NCBI GenBank assembly: GCA_040776985.1
Contig: JAXGZL010000003.1
Location: 54,970 to 118,969, forward strand
Length of the DNA: 64,000 nucleotides
Direction: 5' to 3'
DNA from: Christensenellales bacterium
GTDB taxonomy: Bacteria; Bacillota; Clostridia; Christensenellales; Aristaeellaceae
Part shown: in pieces, positions 18,598-59,172 of the stretch
Layout: every line of letters starts with the position of its first letter
How positions within the stretch are numbered: position 1 is the first letter of the stretch
Program-made: the position numbers and the translations under genes
Notes under the pieces: generated by a model
What the model was told of the DNA's origin: nothing
The model's input: the letters and a program-made list of their open reading frames with translations, nothing else
Database searches by the model: none

Positions 18598-18697
18598 ATC
18601 CCCTTCTCGTAATCATTTCGTCATATTCAGTATAGCATAGTTCGCGCTGTGCATACAAGAGATCTGGCTGGCCGTGTGGCCTTGCGGCAAAAAGAAA

Positions 18698-18722
18698 AGG
18701 AGAGGGCTTTTCGCCCCCTCCT
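18698..18722 (-). terminator. intrinsic terminator hairpin (left copy of a duplicated 25-mer)
   Basis: On the minus strand: AGGAGGGGGCG-aaaa-GCCCTCTCCT followed by TTTTCTTTTT. Identical 25-mer at 18931-18955. Confidence 0.6.
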
Positions 18723-18729
18723 GAGAGAG

Positions 18730-18923
18730 TCGACAAAGTGTCTGCGGACACTTTGTCGTTTTAGAAGAACGGGCATTTTCGCTTGGGAACAAAGTTCCCG
18801 GCCAGCGAAAATGCGTGGAATGCATTGCTTCGCAATGCCCCGCCCGCCCGGCAAAGCCGGGCGATACGATTTCACTCAGAGGACTGTGCCCTCTGAAACA
18901 CCCCCTTTGATTTAGTTTGTCTA
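18730..18923 (-). repeat. ~193-bp multi-hairpin repeat element, copy A (forward orientation is on the minus strand)
   Basis: The reverse complement aligns over its full length, with about a dozen differences, to 35538-35730. Contains five perfect or near-perfect hairpins. Confidence 0.85.
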
Positions 18924-18930
18924 AAGTCTG

Positions 18931-18955
18931 AGGAGAGGGCTTTTCGCCCCCTCCT
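18931..18955 (-). repeat. right copy of the duplicated terminator hairpin (no U-tract on the minus strand)
   Basis: 25/25 identical to 18698-18722. The stem is extended by TCTGAGG/CCTCAGA. Lies 16 nt after the peroxiredoxin stop. Confidence 0.7.
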
Positions 18956-18972
18956 CAGATGCTGTGAACCGA

Positions 18973-19659
18973 TCAGGCCTTGTCCTTCTTGAAGCAGAGG
19001 AACCAGTCCAGACAGGTGATGTCCTCGTCCTTGCCTTCCATGCGCTCCTTGGCGGTGCCGCAGGAGCCGGCCGGGGGCACGATGACATCCTGGCCGGGGC
19101 GCCAGTCGGCCGGGGTGGCCACCTGGTCGCTGTCCGCCTTCTGCAGGGCCAGCACGATGCGCTTAAGCTCGTCAAAGTTGCGGCCGGTGGACAGCGGATA
19201 GTACAGGATGGTGCGGATGATGCCCTTGGGGTCAATCACAAACACGGCGCGCACCGCCTGGGTGTTGCTCTGGCCAGGCTGGATCATGCCATACTTGTTG
19301 GCAACCTCCATGCGGATGTCCTCAATCAGCGGGAAGTGGACCTCCACGTTCTTCATGCCCTTCCACTCCAGCTCCTGGATGCGGCGCAGCCAGGCGATGT
19401 GGGCGTAGAGGGAGTCCACGGACAGGCCGACCAACTCGGTGTTGATGGCCTTGAACTCATCCGACATGGTGGCAAAGGTCATGAACTCCGTGGTGCAAAC
19501 CGGCGTAAAGTCAGCGGGGTGAGAGAAAAGGATGACCCACTTGCCCTTGTAATCCTCCGGGAAGTTGAGGGGGCCCTGGGTGGTGACTGCCTTGAACTCC
19601 GGGGCCTTGTCGCCGATCAGGGGCATGCGGTTGTAGGTGATGGTCTGTGTGTTTTCCAT
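18973..19659 (-). CDS. peroxiredoxin (Prx1/Prx6-type thiol peroxidase)
   Basis: Peroxidatic Cys motif FSHPADFTPVCTTE. ~228 aa with a C-terminal Cys-containing extension. Confidence 0.9.
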   Translation of the reverse strand: MENTQTITYNRMPLIGDKAPEFKAVTTQGPLNFPEDYKGKWVILFSHPADFTPVCTTEFMTFATMSDEFKAINTELVGLSVDSLYAHIAWLRRIQELEWKGMKNVEVHFPLIEDIRMEVANKYGMIQPGQSNTQAVRAVFVIDPKGIIRTILYYPLSTGRNFDELKRIVLALQKADSDQVATPADWRPGQDVIVPPAGSCGTAKERMEGKDEDITCLDWFLCFKKDKA

Positions 19660-25801: not shown

Positions 25802-26848
25802 TTACAGATCGTCCACCAGGGCGCTGGACTTGGCGTAGGCGGTGCTGCGGGCCTCAAAGAAGTCCGTCTTGATCATGTTGGCGTTGGAGTACTGGCTGAC
25901 CCACTTCATGGTGTCCGGCTCCTTGTCAAAGCCCTCATAAATGGGTTCCAGGCCGATGTTGGTGGCCCTCAGGTTCCCCAGGTATTTGATGTAGTCAGAC
26001 ACCATCTGCCCGGTCAGACCCTGGATCTCTTCCCCGATGGCGTACTGCCCCCAGGCGATTTCCTGCTCGCAGCCCTCCCGGATCATTTCCCGGTACATGG
26101 TTTTCATCTCCGGGGTGAAGAGGGAAGGCACTTCCTTTTCCAGCTCCGTGATGATGTTTTTGAACAGGTAGAGGTGGGTGGCCTCGTCCCGGTTGATGTA
26201 GCGGATCTGCTGAACACTGCCCGGCATCCGGTTGTTGCGGCCCAGGTTGTAGAAGAACATGAAGCCGGAGTAGAAGTAGACCCCTTCCAGGATGTAGTTG
26301 CCCATCACAGCTCGCATGAAGTTGACAAGGGACTTGTCCTCCTGGAAGGCGTTGTAGATGTCCCCGATGAAGGTGTTGCGCCTGAGCAGATGCTCGTCAT
26401 CCTTCCACTGGAACAGGACCGCGTCCCGCTCATGGGGCTCGCAGATGGAGTCTAGCATGTAGGAGTAGCTCTGAGAGTGGATGGCTTCCTGATAGGTCTG
26501 GATGCAGATGCAGAGGTTGACCTCGTTGGCGGTGATGTAGTCGCCGATGTTGGGGAGGTTGGCGGTCTGGATGCTGTCCAGGAAAATGAGGAAGGAAAGC
26601 ACCTTGTCATAGGCCCTGCGCTCGGCTGGCGGCAGATGGGGATACTGCTTCTTGTCGGTGGCCAGGTTGATTTCCTCCGGAATCCAGAAGTTGTTCATGG
26701 CCTGACGGTACCAGGGGCTGACCCACTGGTATTTCATGTTGTTGAAGTCGTTCAGGTTGGTGGTGTTGCCGCCGATCATCTGGCGCAGGTGCACCTCTGT
26801 GTCCCCTTTGGGGTTGAACAGAGGTTTTTTGATCAGTTCCGCCATCAT
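25802..26848 (-). CDS. nrdB: class I ribonucleotide reductase beta (R2) subunit
   Basis: Di-iron ligands (EAIHSQSYS, EGVYFYSGF, EATHL). ATGATG at 26848 follows GAGGAGG. Called nrdB rather than nrdF because the alpha subunit carries an ATP-cone. Confidence 0.88.
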   Translation of the reverse strand: MMAELIKKPLFNPKGDTEVHLRQMIGGNTTNLNDFNNMKYQWVSPWYRQAMNNFWIPEEINLATDKKQYPHLPPAERRAYDKVLSFLIFLDSIQTANLPNIGDYITANEVNLCICIQTYQEAIHSQSYSYMLDSICEPHERDAVLFQWKDDEHLLRRNTFIGDIYNAFQEDKSLVNFMRAVMGNYILEGVYFYSGFMFFYNLGRNNRMPGSVQQIRYINRDEATHLYLFKNIITELEKEVPSLFTPEMKTMYREMIREGCEQEIAWGQYAIGEEIQGLTGQMVSDYIKYLGNLRATNIGLEPIYEGFDKEPDTMKWVSQYSNANMIKTDFFEARSTAYAKSSALVDDL

Positions 26849-26934
26849 ATCCTCCTCATTTTCCCGCTTTTCGGGGGCTTCCACTCAGAAAGCCCCCAAA
26901 GTCCTTTGTGTTATTGCTTACATGATACCATGTT

Positions 26935-28929
26935 TTACTGCAGTTTGCTGGTGGCCACAAAACCGCGGGCCGGCTGGTTGTTCACGGTGGTTTCCACATA
27001 GGTCCAGTGGTTGTCATCCCCAGTGTAGGCAAGGGCCGTGACCGGGGTGCCGGCGGGAAGAACGGCCAGGCGTCCGTCCAAAGGCTTCATGATGGGGTCG
27101 TCGGTGAGGTTGCCCTCGGCATTCATGGTCATCGGGACGCTGGAAAGGCGGAGGGCGCCCACCGTCACATCAGCGGGCACAGCGGACTGGTCCACATAGC
27201 CGATGCGGTAGAGATTGTCGCCATAGCCGTAGCCAATGAGCGCCCAGCCATCCACCACGCCATAGATGCGGCAGCGGCCTCTGGACACATGGGCCTGACC
27301 GCCTGCTGCCCGCAGGTAGTTGGTTCCGGGCCCGGTGTAGACATCAAAGGCGCCGGTGAGGGCGGAAGTCTTGAAGTTGGGCAGCGGCTGCAGGCTGACC
27401 GGGGGCGGGGTGGGCTCTTCCGTCGGTTCCGCGGTGGGTTCAGCAGTAGGTTCAGCAGTGGGCTCCGCGGTGGGTTCCGCAGTCGGTTCGGCTGTGGGTT
27501 CCGCGGTTTCCGTAGGTTCAGTGGTGGGTTCCGCGGTTTCTGTTGGATCTGCGGAAGGCACAGGGCTGGGGGAAGGGGTCGGCGTGGGCGTGACCACCAC
27601 AGCCGCCTTGTAGATGAAGGTGACGCTGGGCGGGGTCACGCTGCTGTCTGCGCCCACGGTCACGGTGACGCTGCGCTCACTCTGCAGGGTGTAGCCTTCC
27701 GGCACCAGGGCATCGTTGGCAGTGATGACATTCTCGCCCTGGGTGACCTTCTGGTTTTCATTGTGAAGGGGATTGTTGTCGGTGTCCACGTAGTGGACCG
27801 GCAGGTCCGCCGTGGCGGGCGCCTTGAAGGTGAAGGTGACAGAGGGGGGCGTGGCCACGCCGTCGGCGCTCACCTGGACGGTGACGCTGCCGGGTCCCTG
27901 CAGGGTAAAGCCATCCGGCACATAGCTGGTGTTGGCGGTCACGGTGTGGCTGCCCTGGGCCATGTTGATCTGATCGGTTTTGAAGGTTTCCCCTTCGGTG
28001 CTGACATAGTTGACGGGCACCATCACCGTCACCGGCGCCTTGCGGTAGACAAAGCTGATGACGGCGGGGTTGGCCACGCCGCCAGCGGACACGGTGACGC
28101 TGACCGTCCTGACGCTGGTGAGGGTGTAGCCCTCCGGCACCAGGGAGTCATTGGCGGAAACCTGGGTGATGCCCTGGGGCAGGGTGACGGTTTGACTGGT
28201 GATCAGCTTGTTGTCCGTATCCAGGTAGTTGACGGTGATGTTGGCGGTGACAGGCGGCGTCTCCTTATAATAGGTGAAGGTGACAGAAGGGGGCGTGGCG
28301 CGGCTGTCAGCGCTGACGGTGACCAGCACCTGGGTCTGCCCGGTAAGGAAATAGCCGGCGGGCACACGGGAGGGATTGGGACGCACGGTGGTGCGGCCCT
28401 CAGCCAGGGGGAGGACATCGGTAAACAGCCGCTCCCCGGTGGTGCTCATGTAATAGACCGGCACGTTCACAATCACCGGCGGCCTGACGGTGGGGCTTGG
28501 GGTGACATCCACCGGCGCAAACACCACATTGGGGTCCTGATACAGCTTGGTGAGGGTTTTCACCCCGGCGATGCCATCCTGGGTCAGCTTGTTATAGTAC
28601 TGGAAGCGCTCCACCGCCCGCTTGGTCTGCTGGCCGTAGATGCCGTCCACAGCGCCAGTCAGATAGCCCAATTCCTTTAGGCGCAGCTGCATCACGCGCA
28701 CGTTCTCGCCCCGGTCGCCCACATACAGCGTGGTCATCCTGGGGGTGGAGGTGGGCACAGGCGCCGGGGTGCTGGTGATATAGACCGGCGTGGGGCTGAT
28801 GGTGACCACCGGCGTGGGGGTCTGGAACTGGGTGGGCATGGGGGTGAGGGCAGGCAGCTGAGACACCCCCGAGGTCAGTAAAACGGTCATATAGACCAAC
28901 AGTGTTTTCAACAGATCCATCTCGTTCAC
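26935..28929 (-). CDS. secreted cell-wall-associated protein (PG_binding_1, MucBP-like repeats, Pro/Thr/Glu linker, SH3-like C-terminus)
   Basis: Signal peptide, LKELGYLTGAVDGIYGQQTKRAVERFQ PG-binding motif, five ~70-aa repeats (...VNYLDTD...VPEGYTL...VTF.YK), and an (AEPT)n linker. Confidence 0.7.
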   Translation of the reverse strand: MNEMDLLKTLLVYMTVLLTSGVSQLPALTPMPTQFQTPTPVVTISPTPVYITSTPAPVPTSTPRMTTLYVGDRGENVRVMQLRLKELGYLTGAVDGIYGQQTKRAVERFQYYNKLTQDGIAGVKTLTKLYQDPNVVFAPVDVTPSPTVRPPVIVNVPVYYMSTTGERLFTDVLPLAEGRTTVRPNPSRVPAGYFLTGQTQVLVTVSADSRATPPSVTFTYYKETPPVTANITVNYLDTDNKLITSQTVTLPQGITQVSANDSLVPEGYTLTSVRTVSVTVSAGGVANPAVISFVYRKAPVTVMVPVNYVSTEGETFKTDQINMAQGSHTVTANTSYVPDGFTLQGPGSVTVQVSADGVATPPSVTFTFKAPATADLPVHYVDTDNNPLHNENQKVTQGENVITANDALVPEGYTLQSERSVTVTVGADSSVTPPSVTFIYKAAVVVTPTPTPSPSPVPSADPTETAEPTTEPTETAEPTAEPTAEPTAEPTAEPTAEPTAEPTEEPTPPPVSLQPLPNFKTSALTGAFDVYTGPGTNYLRAAGGQAHVSRGRCRIYGVVDGWALIGYGYGDNLYRIGYVDQSAVPADVTVGALRLSSVPMTMNAEGNLTDDPIMKPLDGRLAVLPAGTPVTALAYTGDDNHWTYVETTVNNQPARGFVATSKLQ
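27415..27550 (-). repeat. in-frame 12/15-nt tandem repeat encoding (PTAEP/TEPTE)n linker
   Basis: ggttc(c/a)gc(g/a)gt(g/a)gg units repeated about 8 times. Translates to TAEPTAEPTAEPTAEPTAEPTAEP. Confidence 0.8.
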
Positions 28930-32104: not shown

Positions 32105-32794
32105 ATGAAATGGATCTGCAAAATCTGCGGCTATATCCACGAAGGGGACGCGCCGCCCGCCATTTGTCCGGTCTGCAAGGCTGACAGCAGCAAGTTTGAG
32201 CTGCTGGAGGAAAAACCCGCAGAAAGCAAACAGGCAAAAAAAGAGAAAACACTAGCCCGCTGGATCTGCAATGTCTGCGGCTATATCCACGAAGGGGATG
32301 CGCCGCCGGATATCTGCCCGGTGTGCAAGGTGGGCAGGGAGCATTTTGAGCCCTATGAGCGCCAGCGCGTCTTTGCGGAGATGCACCGCCTGGGGGTGGC
32401 CCGTGGCGTGGACAGCCAGGTCTTCGCGGGCATCAAGGCCCAGTGCCTGGCCGCCTGTGAGGATGTGGGGCAGTGTCTGGCCATGGCCCGCGCGGCGGAC
32501 CGGGAGGGATATCCCGAGGTGGCGGAGGCGCTGCGCCGCATCGCCCAGGAAAAGTCCGGCCACGCGGCCAGGCTTTATGAGCTGATGGGGGAAGGGATTG
32601 CCCCGGAAAGCGAGGGCAATCTGCGCCTGCTGACGGAGGCGGAGTTGACCGGCTGTCAGGAGGCGAAGGCCATCTCCCAAAGGGCAGGGGCCCTGGGCCT
32701 GGAGGAAATCCGCGACGCCCTGCTTGAGATCGCCCGGGACCGGGCCAGGCATGGCCGGGCGGTGGAGGGGCTGCTGAAAAGACTGTTCTCCTGA
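32105..32794 (+). CDS. tandem rubredoxin-like domains fused to a rubrerythrin/ferritin-like four-helix domain
   Basis: Two copies of W-I-C-x-x-C-G-Y-I-H-E-G-D-A-P-P-x-I-C-P-V-C-K, then ~130 aa resembling the rubrerythrin di-iron domain. Confidence 0.7.
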   Translation: MKWICKICGYIHEGDAPPAICPVCKADSSKFELLEEKPAESKQAKKEKTLARWICNVCGYIHEGDAPPDICPVCKVGREHFEPYERQRVFAEMHRLGVARGVDSQVFAGIKAQCLAACEDVGQCLAMARAADREGYPEVAEALRRIAQEKSGHAARLYELMGEGIAPESEGNLRLLTEAELTGCQEAKAISQRAGALGLEEIRDALLEIARDRARHGRAVEGLLKRLFS

Positions 32795-32943: not shown

Positions 32944-35502
32944 ATGGAAAAGACATTGAGCATCCCTTCCCGGATCACCAAGCGCAGTGGCAACCAGGAG
33001 GCTTATGACAGCCGCAAAATCCGGGAGGCCATCCGCAAATCCTTCCTGGGGACCGATACCCAGGTTTCAGACAGCAAGCTGGACGCGCTGGTGGAGCAGG
33101 CGGAGGCGCTGATCATCCGGGAGATCGCCGCGGGGCAGGCTTTCTCGGTGGAGTTTGTGCAGGACAAGGTGGAGCAGGCGCTGATGGAGGCGGACTGCTT
33201 CCCCCAGGCCAAGGCCTATATCCTCTACCGGGAAACCCGGCGCAGGCTGCGGGAGGACAGGCAGCGCCTGCTGGCCTTTTTCCCGGATCTGCCGCCCCTG
33301 GCCCAGACCCTGGCGGGCATTGGGCGGGATTTCCCCGCGGAGCCCTATTCCCTGGGGGCGCTGAACCGCAAATTCCAGTCCCTTTATAAGGAAGACAGGG
33401 AGCTGGAGGAGCGGGTGGCGCTGCTGGTGCGCGCCGCCCTGGAACTGACCGACAAGGAAGCCTCCCGCTGGGAGATGATCGCGGGCAGGCTGTACAGCTG
33501 CCTGTACCACTACCGCCTGGAAGACCGGGTCAGGAAGCTGGGAATCAACAGCTATCCTGAAAAGATGCGCTACCTGGACCGGGAAGGCCTGCTGGCAAAG
33601 TCCATGCTGGAAACCTATTCCCAGGCAGATCTGGAAGAAGCCTATCAGCTGATCCAGCCGGAGCGGGATCACCTGCTGCCCTATTCCGGGCTTGACCTGC
33701 TGGTGCGCCGCTATGTAATCCATGACCGGAAGCACCGGGGGCTGGAGAGCATCCAGGAGATGTACCTGAACATCGCCCTGTTCCTGGCCATCCCGGAAAA
33801 GCCGGACATGCGCCTTTATTGGGTGAAGCGCTTCTATGACATGCTGAGCCTGCTTTTGGTCACCATGGCCACCCCCACCCTGACCAACGCCAGAAAGCCC
33901 TATCACCAGCTGAGCTCCTGCTTCATTGACACGGTGCCCGATGACCTGCAGGGCATCTACCACAGCATCTCCAACTTCGCCAATGTCTCAAAGTTCGGCG
34001 GCGGCATGGGCCTGTATTTTGGCAAGGTGCGCGCCCATGGCTCGGACATCCGGGGCTTTGAGGGGGCAGCCGGCGGGGTAATCCGCTGGATCCGCCTGGC
34101 CAATGACACCGCCGTGGCGGTGGACCAGCTGGGCGTGCGCCAGGGGGCAGTGGCGGTGTACCTGGACGTGTGGCACCGGGACCTGCCGGAGTTTTTACAG
34201 CTGCGCACCAACAACGGGGATGACCGGATGAAGGCCCACGATGTCTTCCCGGCGGTCTGCATGCCGGACTACTTCTGGCAGCAGGTGCGCGACAACATCG
34301 AGGGGGACTGGCACCTCTTTGACCCCCATGAGATCAGAAAGAAAAAGGGCTGGGCGCTGGAGGACAGCTTTGGCGAGGCCTGGACAGAGAAATACCGGGA
34401 ATGCGTGGCGGACCAGACCCTGAGCCGCCGGGTGATCCCCATCAAGGAGCTGGTGCGCCTGGTGATCAAGTCCGCCGTGGAGACCGGCACCCCCTTTGTT
34501 TTCAACCGGGACCTGGTGAACCGGATGAACCCCAACCCCCACCAGGGGATGATCTACTGCAGCAACCTGTGCACGGAAATCGCCCAGAACATGAGCGCGG
34601 TGCAGGGGGTGTCCCAGGAGATTAAGACCATTGACGGGGAAACGGTGGTGGTGAACATCACCAAGCCTGGGGACTATGTGGTGTGCAACCTGGCCAGCCT
34701 CAACCTGGGCCGCATCCAGGTGGAGGACAAGGAGGAGCTGGAAAGCCTGATCACAGCCGGCATCCGGGCCCTTGACAATGTGATTGACCTGAACTATTAC
34801 CCGGTGCCCTATGCCCAGGTCAACAACAAGCGCTACCGCCCGGTGGGCCTGGGGGTGAGCGGCTATCACCACATGCTGGCCAAGCGCTTCATCGACTGGG
34901 AGACGGAGGAGCACCTGAAGTTCGCCGACCAGGTGTTTGAGGACATCAACTACTTCGCCATCGCCGCCAGCAACAGCCTGGCCAGGGAAAAGGGCAGTTA
35001 TCCGCTCTTCCCCGGAAGCGACTGGGAGAACGGGGAATATTTCGCCAAACGGGACTATGATTCCCCCCGCTGGCAGGAACTCAAGGAACAGGTGGCAAAG
35101 GATGGCCTGCGCAACGGCTATCTGTTGGCCGTGGCGCCCACCTCCAGCATTTCCATCATCGCCGGCACTACGGCGGGAACCGACCCCATCATGAGCCGCT
35201 TCTACTATGACGAGAAGAAAAATGGCCTCATTCCAAGGGCTGCGCCGGACCTGGACGCGGACACCTACTGGTATTACAAGAGCGCCCATCAGATCAACCA
35301 GCTCTGGTCCGTCCGGGCCTGCGGCGTGCGCCAGCGTCATGTGGACCAGGCCCAGAGCATGAACCTCTACATCACCAACGACTACAGCTTCCGCCAGGTG
35401 CTGGAACTGTACATCAGCGCCTGGGAAGAAGGGGTGAAAACCATCTACTACATCCGCTCCAAATCCCTGGAGGTGGAGGACTGCGAAAGCTGCTCCACCT
35501 GA
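32944..35502 (+). CDS. nrdA: class Ia ribonucleoside-diphosphate reductase alpha subunit
   Basis: N-terminal ATP-cone, active-site SNLCTEI, and a C-terminal CESC redox pair, 852 aa. Confidence 0.92.
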   Translation: MEKTLSIPSRITKRSGNQEAYDSRKIREAIRKSFLGTDTQVSDSKLDALVEQAEALIIREIAAGQAFSVEFVQDKVEQALMEADCFPQAKAYILYRETRRRLREDRQRLLAFFPDLPPLAQTLAGIGRDFPAEPYSLGALNRKFQSLYKEDRELEERVALLVRAALELTDKEASRWEMIAGRLYSCLYHYRLEDRVRKLGINSYPEKMRYLDREGLLAKSMLETYSQADLEEAYQLIQPERDHLLPYSGLDLLVRRYVIHDRKHRGLESIQEMYLNIALFLAIPEKPDMRLYWVKRFYDMLSLLLVTMATPTLTNARKPYHQLSSCFIDTVPDDLQGIYHSISNFANVSKFGGGMGLYFGKVRAHGSDIRGFEGAAGGVIRWIRLANDTAVAVDQLGVRQGAVAVYLDVWHRDLPEFLQLRTNNGDDRMKAHDVFPAVCMPDYFWQQVRDNIEGDWHLFDPHEIRKKKGWALEDSFGEAWTEKYRECVADQTLSRRVIPIKELVRLVIKSAVETGTPFVFNRDLVNRMNPNPHQGMIYCSNLCTEIAQNMSAVQGVSQEIKTIDGETVVVNITKPGDYVVCNLASLNLGRIQVEDKEELESLITAGIRALDNVIDLNYYPVPYAQVNNKRYRPVGLGVSGYHHMLAKRFIDWETEEHLKFADQVFEDINYFAIAASNSLAREKGSYPLFPGSDWENGEYFAKRDYDSPRWQELKEQVAKDGLRNGYLLAVAPTSSISIIAGTTAGTDPIMSRFYYDEKKNGLIPRAAPDLDADTYWYYKSAHQINQLWSVRACGVRQRHVDQAQSMNLYITNDYSFRQVLELYISAWEEGVKTIYYIRSKSLEVEDCESCST

Positions 35503-35537
35503 TCGTGGCGCCATATGGTTTGTCTGAATTCAGAATG

Positions 35538-35730
35538 TAGACAAACTATATCAAAGGGGTGTTTCAGAGGGCACAGCCCTCTGAGTGAAATCGTATCGCC
35601 CGGCTTTGCCGGGCGGGCGGGGCATTGCGTAGCAATGCATTCCACGCATTTTCGCTGGCCGGGAGCCAAGCTCCCAAGCGAAAATGCCCGTTCCTCCTAA
35701 ACGACAAAGTGTCCGCAGACACTTTGTCGA
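35538..35730 (+). repeat. ~193-bp multi-hairpin repeat element, copy B
   Basis: Aligns to the reverse complement of 18730-18923. Hairpins: CAGAGGG/CCCTCTG, CGCCCGGC/GCCGGGCG, GCATTGC/GCAATGC, GCATTTTCGC/GCGAAAATGC enclosing GGGAGC/GCTCCC, and CGACAAAGTGTC/GACACTTTGTCG. Confidence 0.85.
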
Positions 35731-35735
35731 CACTC

Positions 35736-35770
35736 AAAGGCCCGCATCCTGTGATGGATGCGGGCCTTTT
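35736..35770. terminator. bidirectional intrinsic terminator (nrdA / nrdR)
   Basis: 14-bp stem AAAGGCCCGCATCC-loop-GGATGCGGGCCTTT, flanked by an A-run and a T-run. Confidence 0.8.
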
Positions 35771-35783
35771 CAGCGAAACAATA

Positions 35784-36266
35784 TCAGTGGCTGCCCAGGT
35801 CGTCCTTCATGCGGTTTTCTTTCATGATGCGGCTGAGCTCATACATGAAGGTGGGGATGTCGGTGAACTGGCGGTAGACCGAGGCGAAGCGGATGTAGGC
35901 CACCTCATCCAGCTCCCGCAGGGCTTCCATCACCCGCTCGCCGATTTGGTGGGTGGTGATCTCCTGCTGCATGCTGTTGTAGGCGAACTGTTCCACCTGG
36001 GTGACAATCCGGTCAATGTCCTGGGCGGCCACCGGGCGCTTGTGGCAGGCGTGGATGATGCCCGCCCGGATCTTGTCCGCGTCAAACAGCTCCCGGGTCT
36101 GATCCTTTTTGATCACCAAAAGGTGGATGGTCTCCACCTTTTCATAGGTGGTGAAGCGCTTGCCGCAGGCGATGCACTCCCGCCTGCGCCGGATGCTGGC
36201 GCCGTCATCGGTTGGCCTGGAGTCCACCACCCGGCTGTCCTCGGAATTGCAAAACTGGCATTTCAT
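35784..36266 (-). CDS. nrdR: transcriptional repressor NrdR
   Basis: MKCQFC...CIACGKRFTTYE zinc ribbon plus an ATP-cone, 160 aa. Confidence 0.93.
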   Translation of the reverse strand: MKCQFCNSEDSRVVDSRPTDDGASIRRRRECIACGKRFTTYEKVETIHLLVIKKDQTRELFDADKIRAGIIHACHKRPVAAQDIDRIVTQVEQFAYNSMQQEITTHQIGERVMEALRELDEVAYIRFASVYRQFTDIPTFMYELSRIMKENRMKDDLGSH

Positions 36267-36392: not shown

Positions 36393-37232
36393 ATGAAAAA
36401 ATTGGCCTTAGCACTTGCCCTGATCATATGTCTGATACCGCTGCTTGCCTTGGCTAAAACAAGCGAAGAGGAAGCGCTGGAAAAAGCCTATCAACACCTG
36501 CTGGAACAGCAAGGGGTGGCCAGAGAGGCGCTTAACCCCTATCAATCAGGCTACGATAAAAATGGAAAAAGCTGGCGCTTCAGCTTTTTGCTGAAGGAAA
36601 AACAGGAGGAAACCGACAACCTTTATGTGGTGGTGTTCAGGAATGACGGCAGCCTGGTGGAGATGATCACGCCCAGGCAGCTCAATCCTGTTGAGCGTTT
36701 TAACCGGGATGGCTTTGAAGCCAGGCCTTATACCACAGCCAGTCTGATGGCAATGAAGCAGAAATGGGGGGATCAGCTGGAGCTGCTGATGGCGGAGGTG
36801 GCGCGCAAAAGCAGTTATCCCTCCCAGGATCAGGACTATAAGCTGAATCTGATGCGCGCCCTCACTCTGGACATCAGGCCTGCTGATGCAGGGGCGCTCA
36901 GCCAGGATGAAGCGCGGAAAAAGGCGGAGGCAGCCATTTTGACAGCCGCCCCCTGGTCAGATGAGAAGCTGGCAAAATATGTGCCGCAGGCAGCCTTCCA
37001 CCATGTCTCCAGAGAGCTGGGAAAGCCTGTATGGCAGTTTATCTATGATTTGGATGCGGCATGGCTGGATCAATACGCACAGGTGGCAAGGCTGTTTGGC
37101 GGGCAGGAGAAAATGCCGATTTATGTCAGCGTGCGCGTAGACGCGTTCACAGGGGCCCTGATGGGGGAGGTGGACACGGTCTATGCCATCAAAGATGGTT
37201 ATGCCAATGCACCCTTCAGTTTTGTGAAGTGA
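36393..37232 (+). CDS. secreted protein with two PepSY-like modules
   Basis: Signal peptide MKKLALALALIICLIPLLALA, and two segments shaped like PepSY domains. ATG at 36393 follows AGGAGG. Confidence 0.4.
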   Translation: MKKLALALALIICLIPLLALAKTSEEEALEKAYQHLLEQQGVAREALNPYQSGYDKNGKSWRFSFLLKEKQEETDNLYVVVFRNDGSLVEMITPRQLNPVERFNRDGFEARPYTTASLMAMKQKWGDQLELLMAEVARKSSYPSQDQDYKLNLMRALTLDIRPADAGALSQDEARKKAEAAILTAAPWSDEKLAKYVPQAAFHHVSRELGKPVWQFIYDLDAAWLDQYAQVARLFGGQEKMPIYVSVRVDAFTGALMGEVDTVYAIKDGYANAPFSFVK

Positions 37233-37992
37233 GGCCTGTCCAGGGCTTGGCCAGGGCCTGCATCCAGGCGCCTACATCCATGCCGTAGGCAAGGTTGAGG
37301 CTCTCAGGGCACAGCACCTGGTCCTTGCTGCCCTGGGCCACTGCCTGCCCTTCCTTCATCAGCAGGGCATGGCTGCCATAGAGCCTGGCGATGGACAGGT
37401 CATGCACCACGGAGATCACCGCCTTGCCGGGCTTTTGCACCCACTGCTCCGTCAGTTCAAACAGCTTTTTCTGATAGGGCAGGTCCAGGGCGTCCGCCGG
37501 CTCGTCCAGCATCAGGATAGCGGGGTCTTGGGCCAATACCTGGGCCAGGAAGGCCCGCTGGCGTTCCCCGCCTGACAGGCTCAGCAGGCTCCTGTGCCTG
37601 AAATCAGCCATCCCGGTCCAGTGAAGGGCCTGCTCCACCATGGCATCCCCGCCGGGGTCCTGGCCGGACAGCCAGCCTTTTTTATGGGCATAGCGGCCCA
37701 GGCGCACCACCTCTTCCACCGTGAAGGCATAGTGCACCCCCTGGCGCTGGGACAGCACCCCCACCAGGCGTGCCCGCTGCCTGGGGGACAGGCTTTTGAT
37801 GTTCTGGTTGAGCAGCCGAACCTCCCCCGTAAAGGGCAGGCTGCCAGACAGGGCGGCGATGAGGGAGGACTTGCCCGCCCCGTTGGGGCCAATCACCATC
37901 AGCCACTGGCCTGCCTCCAACGAGAGGCTGACATCCAGCACGGCGGCGCTTAGCCCATAGTGCAGGGACACATGGGAGGCGGACAGCATCAT
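37216..37992 (-). CDS. ABC transporter ATP-binding protein (iron-siderophore/cobalamin type)
   Basis: Walker A GPNGAGKSS, signature LSGGERQR, Walker B ILMLDEP. ATGA overlap with the permease stop sets the start at 37992. Confidence 0.85.
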   Translation of the reverse strand: MMLSASHVSLHYGLSAAVLDVSLSLEAGQWLMVIGPNGAGKSSLIAALSGSLPFTGEVRLLNQNIKSLSPRQRARLVGVLSQRQGVHYAFTVEEVVRLGRYAHKKGWLSGQDPGGDAMVEQALHWTGMADFRHRSLLSLSGGERQRAFLAQVLAQDPAILMLDEPADALDLPYQKKLFELTEQWVQKPGKAVISVVHDLSIARLYGSHALLMKEGQAVAQGSKDQVLCPESLNLAYGMDVGAWMQALAKPWTGLTSQN

Positions 37993-39035
37993 GAACCCCT
38001 CCTGGCCTTGCGGCGAAACAGGATGCCCACAAAGACGCTGGCGCCAATCAGCGAGGTGACCACCCCGATGGGCAGTTCCACCGGGCTTAGCAGGGTTCTG
38101 GCCAGCAGGTCGCACAGCATCAGGAAGATGGCCCCCATCATCAGGGAGGCGGGCAGCAGGCGCTTATGGTTGGGGCCGGTGACCATGCGCACCATGTGGG
38201 GGATGATCAACCCCACAAAGCCGATGGAGCCGCCGATGGCCACGGCCACCCCGATGAGGGCAGAGACGCTGATCAGCATCTCCAGCTTCACCCGGCGAAC
38301 CGGGATGCCGATGTGGTACGCGTTTTCCTCGCCTATCGCAAAGGCGTTCAGCTCCCCTGAGCGCAGCATGACAAGCCCCCCGCAGACCAGCAGCGCCAGC
38401 AGCAGAAGCCCTGACTGGGCATAGTCGCTGCCTGCCAGGGAGCCCATGGTCCAGAAGGACAGGCTGCGCAGCTTTTCCCCGGAAAAGGCCATGATCAGGG
38501 TGATGAGGGAGCTGGCGAACATGGAAAAAATGACCCCCACCAGGATGATGGTGTGGGTGGAAAAGCTGCGGTCAAAGGCATAGGCCAGGCTCAGGATCAG
38601 GATCAGGGCCAGAAAGGCAAAGACGATGGCAGCCAGCATGGTGCCGGCATAGGGCATCCCCGGGATTTGAAAACCAAAGGCTAGCGCCAGCAGGGCGCCA
38701 AGAGCAGCGCCTGAGGACACCCCCAGGGTGGAGCCATCCGCCAGGGGATTGCGCAAAAGCCCCTGCATGGCGGCGCCGCACAGCGCCAGGGCGGCGCCTG
38801 AGAGCGCCGAGGCCAGCACCCGGGGGATGCGCACATGAAGCAGGATGGGGCCGGCCACGCCTGCCGCCTGCGCGCGGCCGGACAGGGCATCCATCACCGT
38901 CTGCCAGGAGGTGTTAAGGGGGAGGGCCACGCTGCCCAGGCTGATGCAGACAAGGGCCGTGAAGACCACTGCCCCTGCCATCATCAGCAGGGTCAGCAGG
39001 TGGAAGCCTTCGCTTGCTTTGTTTTTCTGCATCAT
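37989..39035 (-). CDS. FecCD/BtuC-family ABC permease
   Basis: ~10 TM helices with the FecCD-family pattern. Lies between the binding-protein and ATPase genes. Confidence 0.85.
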   Translation of the reverse strand: MMQKNKASEGFHLLTLLMMAGAVVFTALVCISLGSVALPLNTSWQTVMDALSGRAQAAGVAGPILLHVRIPRVLASALSGAALALCGAAMQGLLRNPLADGSTLGVSSGAALGALLALAFGFQIPGMPYAGTMLAAIVFAFLALILILSLAYAFDRSFSTHTIILVGVIFSMFASSLITLIMAFSGEKLRSLSFWTMGSLAGSDYAQSGLLLLALLVCGGLVMLRSGELNAFAIGEENAYHIGIPVRRVKLEMLISVSALIGVAVAIGGSIGFVGLIIPHMVRMVTGPNHKRLLPASLMMGAIFLMLCDLLARTLLSPVELPIGVVTSLIGASVFVGILFRRKARRGS

Positions 39036-39079
39036 TCAAAAGAGGGGAAAGCGGCTGGCCGCTTTCCCCGGATCGCTCA

Positions 39080-39994
39080 TCAGGCAGCCTTGTCGGCGGC
39101 CGCTTCAAACAACAGCTGGTACAGGGACTGAAGCGCTTCGGTCAGACGGGGGCCAGGGACGGTGAACAGGTCGCTTTCCACATGGATCACCTGGTTTTCC
39201 TTGACGGCGATGATGTCCTGCCAGCCCTTGCGGGCCATGACCTCTTCCTCGGGCCGGGGGCCTTCCCCAAAGTACATGGTGGTGGTGAAGATGTAGTCCG
39301 GGTTGCGGCTGATGACCTGCTCCTCAGACACCTCGGCCCAGGCGGGACTGTCGGCAAAGATGTTGTCAAGGCCCACTTTTGCGCCCAGCTCGTCCATGAA
39401 GCAGCCCTTGCCGGCGGCCCACAGGCCCCAGGCCAGGGGGGAAGCCTCGTAGTAGGCGCTGCCGGCCTTCTTACCGTCAACTTTCTTGACGATCTCATCA
39501 AAGGAGGCGGTCATGTCCGCCACCAGCTTTTCCGCCTCGGCGGTTTTGCCGGTAACCTGGCCCAGCAGGGTGATGGCCGCATAGACGTCGGCGATGTCCT
39601 GGGCATCGGTCACCAGGGTCAGGATGCCGGCTTTCTCCAGGGCTTCGATGTGCTCCACGCTCTGAGCCATCTTGGTCATCACCACCACATCCGGCTTAAG
39701 CGCGATGATCTGCTCCAGGTTGGTTTCCTGGCCGGACTTGACGGCCTCCACCTCCTGCACCTGGGCAGGATAGTTGCAGTATTCGCCCCTGCCCACCACC
39801 GTGTCGCCTGCGCCAATGGCATACAGAATCTCGCAGTCGCCGGGCATCATCACCACCACGCGCTCCGCCGGCTTTGCGAAAGCCAGCTCGCGCCCGGTCA
39901 TGTCGGTCACCTTCAGCTCTTCCGCAAGAGTGGGCACCGTCAGGGACATCAGCATCACAAGGGTCAGAATCAGGGAAAGTCTGCGCTTTTTCAT
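39080..39994 (-). CDS. periplasmic-binding-protein (BtuF/FhuD type) lipoprotein or secreted substrate-binding protein
   Basis: Signal peptide MKKRRLSLILTLVML and a PBP type 2 pattern. First gene after the cobalamin riboswitch. Confidence 0.8.
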   Translation of the reverse strand: MKKRRLSLILTLVMLMSLTVPTLAEELKVTDMTGRELAFAKPAERVVVMMPGDCEILYAIGAGDTVVGRGEYCNYPAQVQEVEAVKSGQETNLEQIIALKPDVVVMTKMAQSVEHIEALEKAGILTLVTDAQDIADVYAAITLLGQVTGKTAEAEKLVADMTASFDEIVKKVDGKKAGSAYYEASPLAWGLWAAGKGCFMDELGAKVGLDNIFADSPAWAEVSEEQVISRNPDYIFTTTMYFGEGPRPEEEVMARKGWQDIIAVKENQVIHVESDLFTVPGPRLTEALQSLYQLLFEAAADKAA

Positions 39995-40039
39995 CAGGGG
40001 TTTCCTCCTCCAGTTGATCAAATGAAACCGGGCAGCCCC

Positions 40040-40245
40040 TTATGGAACTGCCCGAAAGCATACGCGTGTCATCGCGCCCCACCGCAGGAGCTGATCGCAC
40101 GCCTCGGTCTCCCGGCTTGGCTTCATCCGCTCAGACGCCTTCCCGCTTGCGCAGTGGCCGATGGTCTGATTGTCCGCTTCACGGTTACTGGGTTAGCCTG
40201 GAATTTTCATCCATGTTCCCTGGCGCGGGTTGCCCCTTGCCAGGC
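40040..40245 (-). promoter_or_regulatory. cobalamin (B12) riboswitch
   Basis: Minus strand contains ...AGGGAACATGGATGAAAATTCCAGGCTAACCCAGTAACCGTGAAGCGG...GGCCACTGCGCAAGCGGGAAGGC... with the B12 box GCCACTG at 40152-40158, then the hairpin GGGCAG...CTGCCC before the RBS. Confidence 0.85.
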
Positions 40246-40370
40246 GCGCGCAACTGTTCATTTGTCATGTGAAGTATACCCTGCGCACATTACCCTGTCA
40301 ACGCAAAAGGGCCTTGTGCAGGGCCCTTGATGCGGTTACAATCCCCTTAGCAAGATATCAGGAGGCAACA

Positions 40371-51206: not shown

Positions 51207-52734
<1,528 letters not shown>

Positions 52735-53149
52735 GGGAGCAATGGTAGGCAGGAATGCCAACCATGAATTCCAGGTCGATCGGTCGGGCTGAAAGGCCAG
52801 GCTGAAAGAAACAGAGCCTGCAGGCGCGAGCCACAGGCAGGCAGCAGGAAGAGACGCCTGTTGCGAAACGAAGGACAACTGTCCCGCTTCTCCATCTGTA
52901 TCGTCTTCAGGGTCCCTTTGGATTCTGAAACAGCCTGAGAGGCTGTGCGCACCTTGACAACCGCACAACGGAAGAACGAGAGAAGACCTTAAAGAAAAGA
53001 AGGTTTTAAAGGCCAGTTGCGTGATGTGGAGACACATTGCAAAACGCATCGAGAGATGCAAAAGATAATTGGTCTCAGGATAAAGCAGCAGAGCATGTAT
53101 CGCTACATGGGAAACTCTGCTGCGAGATGTGAGAGATCACATCAAAAGA

Positions 53150-56063
<2,914 letters not shown>

Positions 56064-56258
56064 CAGGAGACCAATGGAGAATGGCTAAAAGACTCTCGTT
56101 TAGAAGTTGTGCGGTTGTCAGGGGGCGAAGGCGAGCGCCCGCAGAAGCGGGAAGAAGCGAGCCGAAAGCCCAATGAGGCAGGGAGCTTTCGATGAGCGAA
56201 AGCGAAGAAGAAAGAGCCCATGCCGAATTGAGGGAAGTAAAGTCCCACCTGAACAACT

Positions 56259-56375
56259 ACCGGTGGCAAAGGCGAAGGGGCCCCACCTGTTCTCATCCCG
56301 AACACAGAAGTTAAGCCCTTCAGCGCCGATGGTACTTGGCTGGAAACGGCCCGGAAGAGTAGGTCGCCGCCGGTT
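56259..56375 (+). rRNA. rrf: 5S ribosomal RNA
   Basis: ...CCCGAACACAGAAGTTAAGCCCTTCAGCGCCGATGGTACTTGG...GAGTAGGTCGCCGCCGG, ~117 nt. Confidence 0.9.
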
Positions 56376-56383
56376 CCCAAAAG

Positions 56384-56412
56384 AGACACCTTGTGAAAGC
56401 AGGGTGTCTTTT
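56384..56412 (+). terminator. intrinsic terminator after 5S
   Basis: AGACACC-loop-GGTGTCT followed by TTTT. Confidence 0.65.
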
Positions 56413-56430: not shown

Positions 56431-56485
56431 CAGCGCCTTGGACCTTGGCTGGAAACGGCCCGGAAGAGTAGGTCGCCGCCGGTTA
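56431..56485 (+). pseudogene. 55-nt duplicate of the 5S rRNA 3' portion
   Basis: CAGCGCCttGGacCTTGGCTGGAAACGGCCCGGAAGAGTAGGTCGCCGCCGGTT against the genuine 56321-56375. Four substituted positions (56438, 56439, 56442, 56443), clustered near the 5' end of the copy. No 5' half is present. Confidence 0.8.
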
Positions 56486-56493
56486 CCAAGAGA

Positions 56494-58194: not shown

Positions 58195-58882
58195 AGCCAA
58201 GGAAGCAGTCGAAAAGGCTGAACAGGTGATTGACAGCCAGGACGCCAAGGAACAGGACGAGGCTGTGGAAATAGACCCCAAAACCGGCAAGAAAAAGAAA
58301 GAAAAAAAGAAGAAGACCGTGGGACAGGAAATACTGAGCTGGGTGGGCACCCTGCTGCTGGCGGTGATCATCGCCATGGCCATTCGCGCCCTGCTGTTTG
58401 AGCCCATCAAGGTGGATGGAGAGAGCATGATCAACACCCTGCAAAACGGTGAGATCGTGCTGGTGACCAAGCCGGATGTGCTGCTGAACAAGCTGAAGCG
58501 GGGCGATGTGGTGATCTGCCGCTTCCCCAACCGCAACAAGTCCACCAACTTCAGGCTGGGGGCGCCCCTTGATGTGGCCTTTGTCGGGCATGAGCTGTTT
58601 GTGAAGCGCCTGGTGGCGCTGCCGGGCGACAGCGTGGCGAGTTTGGACGGCAAGCTGTATGTGAATGATGCCCTGGTGGATGAGAGCTATGTGGATTATC
58701 CCAGCCGCGGGGATTACCCCCGCCAGGTGCTGGGGGAGGATGAGTACATGGTGATGGGGGATAACCGCGCTTCCAGCCATGACAGCCGCTCACGGGATGT
58801 GGGCCCCATCAGCCGGGACATGATTGTGGGGCACGCCGCCTATGTGCTGTTTCCCCTGAACCGGATCAGGAGCATTCGCTGA
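58169..58882 (+). CDS. lepB: signal peptidase I
   Basis: Box B GESMINTL (catalytic Ser), box D VKRLVALPGD (Lys), box E GDNRASSHDSR. Lys/Glu-rich N-terminal extension. ATG at 58169 is 7 nt after AAGGAG. Confidence 0.88.
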   Translation: MTDQNMKNEAKEAVEKAEQVIDSQDAKEQDEAVEIDPKTGKKKKEKKKKTVGQEILSWVGTLLLAVIIAMAIRALLFEPIKVDGESMINTLQNGEIVLVTKPDVLLNKLKRGDVVICRFPNRNKSTNFRLGAPLDVAFVGHELFVKRLVALPGDSVASLDGKLYVNDALVDESYVDYPSRGDYPRQVLGEDEYMVMGDNRASSHDSRSRDVGPISRDMIVGHAAYVLFPLNRIRSIR

Positions 58883-58902: not shown

Positions 58903-59172
58903 ATGGCAGGAGGAGGCGACAGCGTCGCGGTGGATTCAGGCAAACTCTATGTCAATGATGCCCTGGTGGAAGAAGCCTATGTGGATTACCCCGGCTGGTC
59001 GGACTATGCTCGCCGGGTGCTGGGGGAGAACGAATACATGGTGATGGGGGACAACCGGGCGGCCAGCCATGACAGCCGCTCTTGGGATGTAGGCCCCATC
59101 ACGCGGGAGATGATCGTGGGGCATGTCTCCCTGGTGGTTTATCCCTTCGATAAAATCAGAACCATCAACTAA
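58903..59172 (+). pseudogene. 5'-truncated tandem copy of signal peptidase I (C-terminal third only)
   Basis: 89-aa ORF that aligns residue-for-residue with the lepB C-terminus (GDSVA..GKLYVNDALV.E.YVDYP...GDNRA.SHDSR). It lacks the TM helix, the catalytic Ser box and the Lys box. Confidence 0.65.

Follow-up and report, generated by a model that had tools for sequence, protein, structure and literature searches.

Two copies of a structured element of about 205 nt, designated A and B, lie in a 64,000-nucleotide stretch of a Christensenellales bacterium genome (contig JAXGZL010000003.1, positions 54,970 to 118,969; this whole stretch is called the window below), one behind a peroxiredoxin gene and the other behind nrdA, the gene for the large subunit of class I ribonucleotide reductase. 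We think it likely that they represent a previously undescribed family of non-coding, promoterless and non-autonomous mobile elements that target the transcription terminators of uncultured digester Clostridia. All the related sequences used here, given L numbers, are contigs from metagenome-assembled genomes (MAGs) or metagenomes, and copy numbers, chimeric flanks and orientation statistics are to be read as approximate.

The element is mobile: strains that are nearly identical differ in whether a given site carries it. Strains that share 96-99% identity with the window are empty at both positions, A and B. At site A, the element is present in the window and in L060 and L061, and it is missing from L062, L063, L064 and L066 (96-99% identity in the flanks); the site A contigs compared all encode an identical peroxiredoxin protein. 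In the empty alleles the intergenic region measures 154 nt and contains one terminator hairpin, and the two BLAST segments of the filled site overlap on the empty allele by 24 nt, the overlap being this hairpin. Relative to the empty allele, a filled site A has gained the element and one more copy of the stem-loop (GGAGGGGGCGAAAAGCCCTCTCCT), a duplication of 24-29 nt. In the window the two stem-loops form a 29-nt direct repeat flanking copy A (Table 1), the one before copy A having gone unmentioned in a first-pass annotation of this DNA. At site B, which is empty in L069 and L068, the comparison shows a clean 204-nt insertion with a target duplication of 0-2 nt. The insertion point of copy B is the 5' foot of an A-tract and its hairpin, the terminator that now follows copy B and that has four T's only.

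Duplication of terminator hairpins is not limited to site A. Clear flank-to-flank direct repeats were found in 15 of 34 copies (above the 99th percentile of a control in which the left and right flanks were taken from different copies), and about 6 further copies have degenerate ones. The duplications measure 20-33 nt, have a sequence specific to each site and nearly all enclose a GC-rich stem-loop, and a working hairpin with its T-tract is retained beside the element. In the left hairpin copy C>T and G>A changes are frequent, some of them compensatory, which fits relaxed constraint after loss of the T-tract. We also observed that in the duplicated hairpins of L042, L050, L037 (5165-5373), L015, L023 and L037 (5926-6133) the stems are identical or compensated and the loops mostly differ; selection on both hairpins, palindrome correction and gene conversion are candidate causes.

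Terminators seem to have been used repeatedly. An inverted relic of the 5' end of the element, located directly after the nrdR terminator, already exists in the alleles without copy B (L068 3032-3050; L069 595-613), indicating an older insertion in the opposite orientation at the same terminator, which has since decayed. In the window this relic can pair with the start of copy B and would form an additional hairpin. Solo fragments of the 3' hairpin also occur directly beside terminator hairpins (L022 1065, L031 11108, L059 8288, L037 near 3640 and L003 844), as GTGACCGCAGTCAC, from a sister subfamily, or GTGTCCGCAGACAC, and often adjoin a full copy; these fragments are what is left of earlier insertions at those terminators. 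Together with the relic, they argue for repeated use of such sites.

Within the window, the two copies form an inverted pair. Alignment of the reverse complement of 18690-18980 with 35490-35780 gave about 93% identity over about 207 nt, a repeat finder returned arms at 18720-18907 and 35553-35740 (188 nt, 93% complementary) and blastn 92.75% over 207 nt. These three results agree that the near-identical inverted pair reported by the first-pass annotation is real, its length having been slightly underestimated since the full unit is somewhat longer, at about 205 nt. The remaining inverted pairs of the window reach just 41-45 nt at 71-73%, a 21-mer of the element is expected to match 0 times by chance as judged from shuffles, and a covariance model finds no more than these two copies inside the window. 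The five-hairpin fold announced for both copies was borne out as well: five identical hairpins are predicted in the two regions, at -145.9 and -142.5 kcal/mol (z = -9.5 and -9.4), and 0 of 200 shuffles matched the stability of either.

The search for further copies in related genomes, which that annotation had proposed, returned many. In species-representative genomes, an exact 21-mer of the linker matched 11 times in the fragmented MAG of Clostridia bacterium CTOTU19891 and 2 times in a second MAG, Clostridiales bacterium AS07pgkLD_4. Most of the 11 matches in CTOTU19891 lie within a few bases of contig ends, and this crowding is the signature of a repeat that breaks assemblies. A match in a Woeseiaceae sequence (L012) was rejected as a chance coincidence of 21 letters. 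A 20-mer retrieved 45 loci from anaerobic bioreactor metagenomes, with up to 3 copies on single contigs of 39-58 kb, and BLAST of copy B against all fetched loci gave 51 full-length copies at 36 unique sites. Two patterns scanned on viral contigs gave 0 matches, BLAST against plasmid and phage collections gave none, and a scan of the window plus 59 loci with a covariance model (R1), meant to reveal distant or autonomous copies, recovered only the known ones. The Clostridia in which the element was found are uncultured, come from anaerobic digesters and form a narrow group. The option of a dispersed repeat of the REP, BIME or MITE (miniature inverted-repeat transposable element) type, which the first-pass annotation had left open, proves essentially right: the element is multi-copy, mobile and polymorphic between strains.

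The structure of the element was derived from an alignment of 32 unique copies with RNAalifold. From 5' to 3', it comprises an unstructured 27-nt leader, a possible helix P1, the hairpins H1, P2, P3 and P4 arranged around a junction, a linker and the hairpin P5 (Table 1). H1 is located 35 nt from the element start, and P5, a perfect 12-bp hairpin, lies 6 nt from the 3' end. Standard pairs occupy 99.2% of the cells, versus about 44% when the partners are slid by 1-3 columns. Double-sided changes affect 21 of 60 pairs (111 cells, transversion swaps included), and none of 500 shuffles reached any of the covariation measures. No double change was found in the alignment for P1, which is therefore unsupported by covariation. 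Many unpaired bases of the junction and loops are invariant, and the termini are the least conserved part, with a minor-allele fraction of 0.19 in the 27-nt leader versus 0.07-0.10 in the core; in the sister subfamilies L037c, L027b, L020b and L034 leaders and tails are unrelated. Separately, the inner helix of P4 (alignment columns 138-152; window 35661-35675 and 18799-18785) contains in most members tandem G.A/A.G mismatches with covarying flanks, at positions that are Watson-Crick paired in both window copies and in L056.

A long variant of 367 nt, with a multi-hairpin expansion of about 180 nt in P2, is present in L005 (6595-6961), L022 (664-1032) and L033 (2608-2974), and fragments of it stand at contig ends of L004, L014 and L045. 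On either side of the copy in L022 stands one of two duplicated terminator hairpins. The insert of about 180 nt was not found standing alone in the related loci and has no match in Rfam. The same site behind nrdB is occupied in L057 (2470-3874) by the short variant and in L005 (5422-6961), with 86% nucleotide identity, by the long one, either through an old common insertion or through repeated use of one terminator.

The searches for features of known mobile or RNA elements were negative. The first 70 nt score 16 against the reverse complement of the last 70 nt, with a shuffle mean of 16.2, so that terminal inverted repeats are absent. Indels of 1-2 nt between the aligned copies break any reading frame, indicating that the element is non-coding, and no promoter was detected in it by a sigma-70 scan. 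ARAGORN found no tRNA-like fold in either window copy. No Rfam family matched at the gathering threshold in the window, at E-values up to 10 for copy A or up to 1 for the long variant, and the best sub-threshold matches cover the flanking terminator hairpins only; the element, as first stated, belongs to no named RNA family, even at relaxed thresholds. Self-BLAST of the loci for repeats of 300 bp or more whose flanks are unrelated, as possible parent insertion sequences, returned the 367-nt long variant only. Searches of the literature by sequence strings and by topical full-text queries found no description of the element.

The gene context initially given for the window copies is correct: copy A follows the peroxiredoxin gene on the minus strand and copy B follows nrdA on the plus strand, each with a T-tract terminator only after the element (35736-35770 for copy B; for copy A, the terminator scan calls a terminator-like site at 18722-18698 on the minus strand). 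Since both copies stand in sense orientation between the stop codon and a T-tract terminator, with no promoter of their own, they are probably carried on the peroxiredoxin and reductase mRNAs as structured 3' untranslated regions (UTRs) of about 200-230 nt, judging from the sequence. Transcription as a 3' UTR, proposed for the element as such, is a reasonable reading for these two copies and does not extend to the family as a rule. With open reading frames (ORFs) scored by a codon-usage model trained on ten window genes, and genes of the related loci called with this simple model except where checked, a convergent gene lies to the right, as seen in the element's frame, in about 25 of 32 cases and ends about 41-63 nt from the element. 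Where the neighbouring genes are in tandem, sense copies number about 4 and antisense copies about 10; L015, antisense just 3' of a solute-binding-protein gene, and L027, antisense between a Zn-peptidase gene and a MatE gene, were checked by hand and with Pfam. By the available proxies there is no orientation bias, 11 of 30 copies being co-oriented with the local coding majority and 15 of 30 having a positive GC skew. The proposal that the element always lies in sense orientation downstream of a gene thus fails outside the window, and the 3'-UTR placement is a by-product of the landing site, not the purpose of the element.

The first-pass annotation had also linked the element to redox genes. 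This link did not hold and was judged coincidental, because the genes adjoining other copies are unrelated in function, despite nrdA in the window and nrdB, which carries copies downstream in L005 and L057; these last are regarded as chance or as a preference for strong terminators. The sense orientation behind two redox genes is a coincidence of two copies. Of the two readings originally offered, the mobile repeat is supported by the copies and their polymorphism, and the structured or 3'-UTR-derived small RNA (sRNA) is not, given the varied orientations: many copies in varied orientations, which by the annotation's own account would speak for an ordinary repeat, argue against a dedicated sRNA.

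To account for the insertions, we propose that an enzyme encoded elsewhere in the genome would join the element to both feet of the hairpin. If the palindrome were attacked while extruded as a cruciform, the cuts would be adjacent in space and one hairpin apart in sequence, and gap repair would then duplicate the hairpin; on a target that is not extruded, the same reaction would leave a duplication of 0-2 nt, as at copy B. A fixed stagger on straight DNA would not explain duplications as long and as variable as these (20-33 nt), which makes attack on a cruciform the simplest model. Terminators would be safe landing sites since genes and termination are left intact. Moreover, the absence of inverted ends, the variable termini and the conserved covarying core suggest that the folded element is recognized, not its ends.

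Several points weigh against this interpretation. The cruciform step is entirely conjectural. The element has been linked to no transposase, integrase or reverse transcriptase, no autonomous version or parent insertion sequence was found in about 0.5 Mb of related loci, and classical cut-and-paste enzymes need the terminal inverted repeats that it lacks. About one third to one half of the copies have no recognizable hairpin duplication; L054, L037a and L021 have different hairpins on their two sides, and others have none on the left. Template-switch correction can produce compensatory changes in DNA palindromes without selection. Strand specificity of the fold is only weakly supported: G.U cells outnumber A.C cells by 108 to 4, with three poorly supported pairs accounting for 90 of the former, the sporadic cells alone give 18 G.U in 12 pairs versus 4 A.C in 4 pairs, an excess which hints that the fold matters on a given strand, and the minimum free energies of the sense and antisense strands are equal. 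Among the metagenome contigs, L038, L058 and L049 on the one hand and L029, L039 and L024 on the other have one flank in common and the other differing. Recombination between copies or assembly chimeras probably contribute to mismatched flanks, and another insertion mode is possible.

Propagation through a folded single strand, as a SINE-like retroposon (after the short interspersed elements, SINEs) or as the partner of a structure-specific integrase, would make the element a kind of mobile element not previously described; we consider this unlikely. Retroposition through RNA, taken by itself, is a doubtful explanation. Here, a read-through RNA would fold and be copied into DNA by a reverse transcriptase encoded elsewhere, at a nick beside the terminator hairpin, with a second nick at the hairpin's other foot producing a variable duplication. 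The absence of terminal inverted repeats and duplications of variable length (20-33 nt and 0-2 nt) are indeed what is expected of SINE-like retroposons, and the excess of G.U pairs over A.C pairs would suit an RNA intermediate. The internal fold is kept while the 5' leader varies, being replaced or truncated in L058, L044, L037c, L027b, L020b and L034, and P2 accommodates the structured expansion of about 180 nt as peripheral RNA helices do. Sense copies precede the T-tract and could be transcribed even though the element has no promoter, but many antisense copies stand behind an intact terminator, a position from which no sense RNA would arise. The element has neither an internal promoter nor a tRNA-like fold, Rfam scans show no ribozyme or intron domains, and a defined 3' tail, A-rich or other, is missing, the run of A's at the right junction being part of the target. 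The lack of a linked reverse transcriptase and the equal folding energies of the two strands count against this route too, and we know of no bacterial retroposon that makes such duplications. As retroelements that home to terminator hairpins, group IIC introns offer a parallel (PMC1702495).

A structured RNA that benefits the host, whether a 3'-UTR-derived sRNA, a 3' structure stabilizing mRNA or a scaffold or guide acting in trans, with copies kept by selection, appears very improbable. It would account for the sense placement of both window copies ahead of a terminator, for the 21 covarying pairs with invariant junction bases and for the occupation of the same post-nrdB site in two species at 86% identity; H1 and its flanks (GUUU ... 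AAAU) also loosely resemble a fused repeat:anti-repeat duplex, an impression from the sequence. It does not account for the promoterless copies, about 10 of the 14 in tandem context, that lie antisense behind an intact terminator, for neighbour genes unrelated in function, for presence that is polymorphic between near-identical strains, for the common relics and truncated copies or for the lack of an Rfam match. The least probable explanation is transposition of single-stranded DNA by an HUH enzyme, as for REP/REPIN sequences and RAYT or for a miniature IS200/IS605 derivative (PATE): the missing inverted ends, the conserved H1 and P5 near the two termini, the extragenic location near terminators shared with REP/BIME, the compensatory changes in hairpins seen also in REPINs and the G.U excess would agree with it, but target duplication is foreign to such families and duplications of 20-33 nt are frequent in our element, the left junction is variable with no conserved target motif of 4-5 nt, the sequences of H1 and P5 are unrelated, coding strand and GC skew, as proxies, give no sign of the bias towards the lagging-strand template that these families show on insertion, no IS605-related RNA family matches in Rfam, and the element is one 205-nt multi-hairpin module instead of a short palindrome or a pair of them.

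The insertion of terminator-targeting elements can be compared with known systems. The outcome is closest to that of IS1630 from Mycoplasma fermentans (IS30 family), in which, as here, whole inverted repeats that vary in length and sequence are duplicated, over 20-33 nt in our element. Going by its title, Calcutt et al. 1999 reportedly describes IS1630 as targeting and duplicating inverted repeats, which are said to derive from rho-independent terminators. Passages in two other papers give IS1630 variable duplications of 19-26 bp (PMC2853133; PMC3317919). IS1630 differs in being 1.4 kb long and autonomous, with 27-bp terminal inverted repeats and a transposase gene, none of which the 205-nt element has; in addition, conservation of the element is lower at the ends than inside, and a related transposase was not found. 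The lifestyle is closest to that of MITEs and small dispersed repeats (Correia, ERIC, RUP, BOX, SPRITE, bcr1), which are likewise small, non-coding, multi-copy, intergenic and structured, often co-transcribed with their neighbours and polymorphic in presence. With about 205 nt and 36 sites, the element falls within the classical size definition of MITEs (under about 300-500 bp, no coding capacity, many copies). However, classical MITEs have terminal inverted repeats and short fixed duplications (e.g. TA), both absent here, and the conserved part of the element is a covarying multi-hairpin fold.

The landing site is closest to that of group IIC introns, which settle beside terminator stem-loops by recognizing structure and not sequence, thereby sparing genes (PMC1702495). 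These introns are ribozymes of at least about 700 nt, usually with a reverse transcriptase gene, and insert only in sense, 3' of the hairpin and with no duplication, whereas the element occurs in both orientations and duplicates hairpins; no group II feature (such as domain V of the six-domain ribozyme) was matched in Rfam at E-values up to 10. REP, BIME and REPIN (RAYT) sequences share with the element an extragenic location near gene 3' ends, hairpins with compensatory stem changes and a high copy number, but they are palindromes of 20-40 nt with a conserved 5' tetranucleotide, clustered or paired, in contrast to a single five-hairpin module that duplicates its target. REP-like spread of the apical palindrome of P5 was considered and rejected, a few relics only being found. 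Finally, spacer integration by Cas1-Cas2 duplicates a whole palindromic repeat on either side of the insert (PMC4940900), joining at both palindrome borders as could occur here. Cas1-Cas2 handles fragments of about 30-40 bp at one defined array, while the element is a defined 205 nt found at many unrelated palindromes. The element shows none of the properties that define these systems (inverted ends, a fixed short duplication, ribozyme domains, sense-only insertion, a target motif).

Table 1. Coordinates, in the window, of the two element copies, their structural parts, the adjoining terminators and the neighbouring genes.
Feature	Position	Strand	Remarks
Copy A	18725-18930	-	5' CAGACTTTAGAC ... 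GTCGACTCTC 3' on the minus strand; edges +/- ~2 nt; covariance model score 219 bits; delimited by filled/empty comparison
Copy B	35531-35735	+	CAGAATGTAGAC ... GTCGACACTC; covariance model score 240 bits; delimited by empty alleles L069 and L068
Possible closing helix P1	35556-35559 (GGGG) with 35694-35697 (CUCC)	+	would give a five-way junction; one-sided changes only
H1	35564-35584 (copy A 18896-18876)	+	UCAGAGGGC ACA GCCCUCUGA; near-invariant in 32 copies, one G.U cell in 288
P2	35592-35619 (copy A 18868-18841)	+	compensatory changes in 3 pairs; holds the ~180-nt expansion of the long variant
P3	35620-35643 (copy A 18840-18817)	+	2 covarying pairs
P4	35646-35687 (copy A 18814-18773)	+	long stem with inner helix; 11 covarying pairs
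P5, 3' subterminal 12-bp hairpin	35702-35729 (copy A 18758-18731)	+	CGACAAAGUGUC CGCA GACACUUUGUCG; 5 covarying pairs
Left (upstream) copy of the peroxiredoxin terminator stem-loop	18931-18959	-	TCTGAGGAGGGGGCGAAAAGCCCTCTCCT; without T-tract
Right (downstream) stem-loop copy and T-tract	18689-18726	-	stem-loop 18698-18726, T-tract TTTCTTTTT 18689-18697; working intrinsic terminator
Bidirectional terminator	35736-35770		AAA + GGCCCGCATCC TGTGAT GGATGCGGGCC + TTTT; serves the reductase gene (+) and nrdR (-)
Inverted relic, first ~19 nt of an older element copy	35513-35530 or 35513-35531	-	reads GAATTCAGACAAACCATAT / GAATKCAGACAAACCATAT; directly after the nrdR terminator + TTT
Peroxiredoxin, 1-Cys type	18973-19659	-	Pfam AhpC-TSA/1-cysPrx_C
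Class I ribonucleotide reductase large subunit (nrdA)	32944-35502	+	upstream of copy B
nrdR	35784-36266	-	Pfam; convergent on nrdA

Some other features of the window were recorded. The class I ribonucleotide reductase genes are split, nrdB (25802-26884, minus strand) lying 6 kb from nrdA on the opposite strand, and a rubrerythrin-like ORF just 5' of nrdA (32105-32794, plus strand) contains a pair of rubredoxin-like domains with 80% identity over 91 nt. A cobalamin riboswitch at 40088-40259 on the minus strand (Rfam RF00174, 63.9 bits) is located 5' of three minus-strand ORFs (37216-40021), which by their sequence look like transporter genes, resembling the FecCD and ABC_tran genes called beside nrdR in L067. 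The final stretch of the 5S rRNA gene, about 55 nt, recurs 109 nt downstream (56330-56384 and 56439-56493, 93% identity), and the second stretch is a partial copy after the rRNA operon (51207-56375). Tandem coding repeats at 27604-28317, with a period of 216-225 nt and 3-4 copies that are 63-85% identical, lie inside a minus-strand ORF of 664 amino acids (26935-28929). A direct repeat of 227 nt (58649-58875 and 58939-59165, 78% identity) covers the ends of two plus-strand ORFs that adjoin each other.

The element provides a second independent case of an element that lands on terminators and duplicates the hairpin, IS1630 being the sole precedent found; the new case comes from a phylum other than that of Mycoplasma and is tiny and gene-less. 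Its variable ends and conserved core are the reverse of the normal MITE design, offering a lead to a structure-specific integrase or to RNA-mediated copying. In practice, the element breaks short-read assemblies of digester Clostridia, with many contig ends falling inside it. For the bacteria themselves, its copies may promote rearrangements, and the structured 3' UTRs that it adds to housekeeping genes such as those for peroxiredoxin and ribonucleotide reductase could alter mRNA stability.

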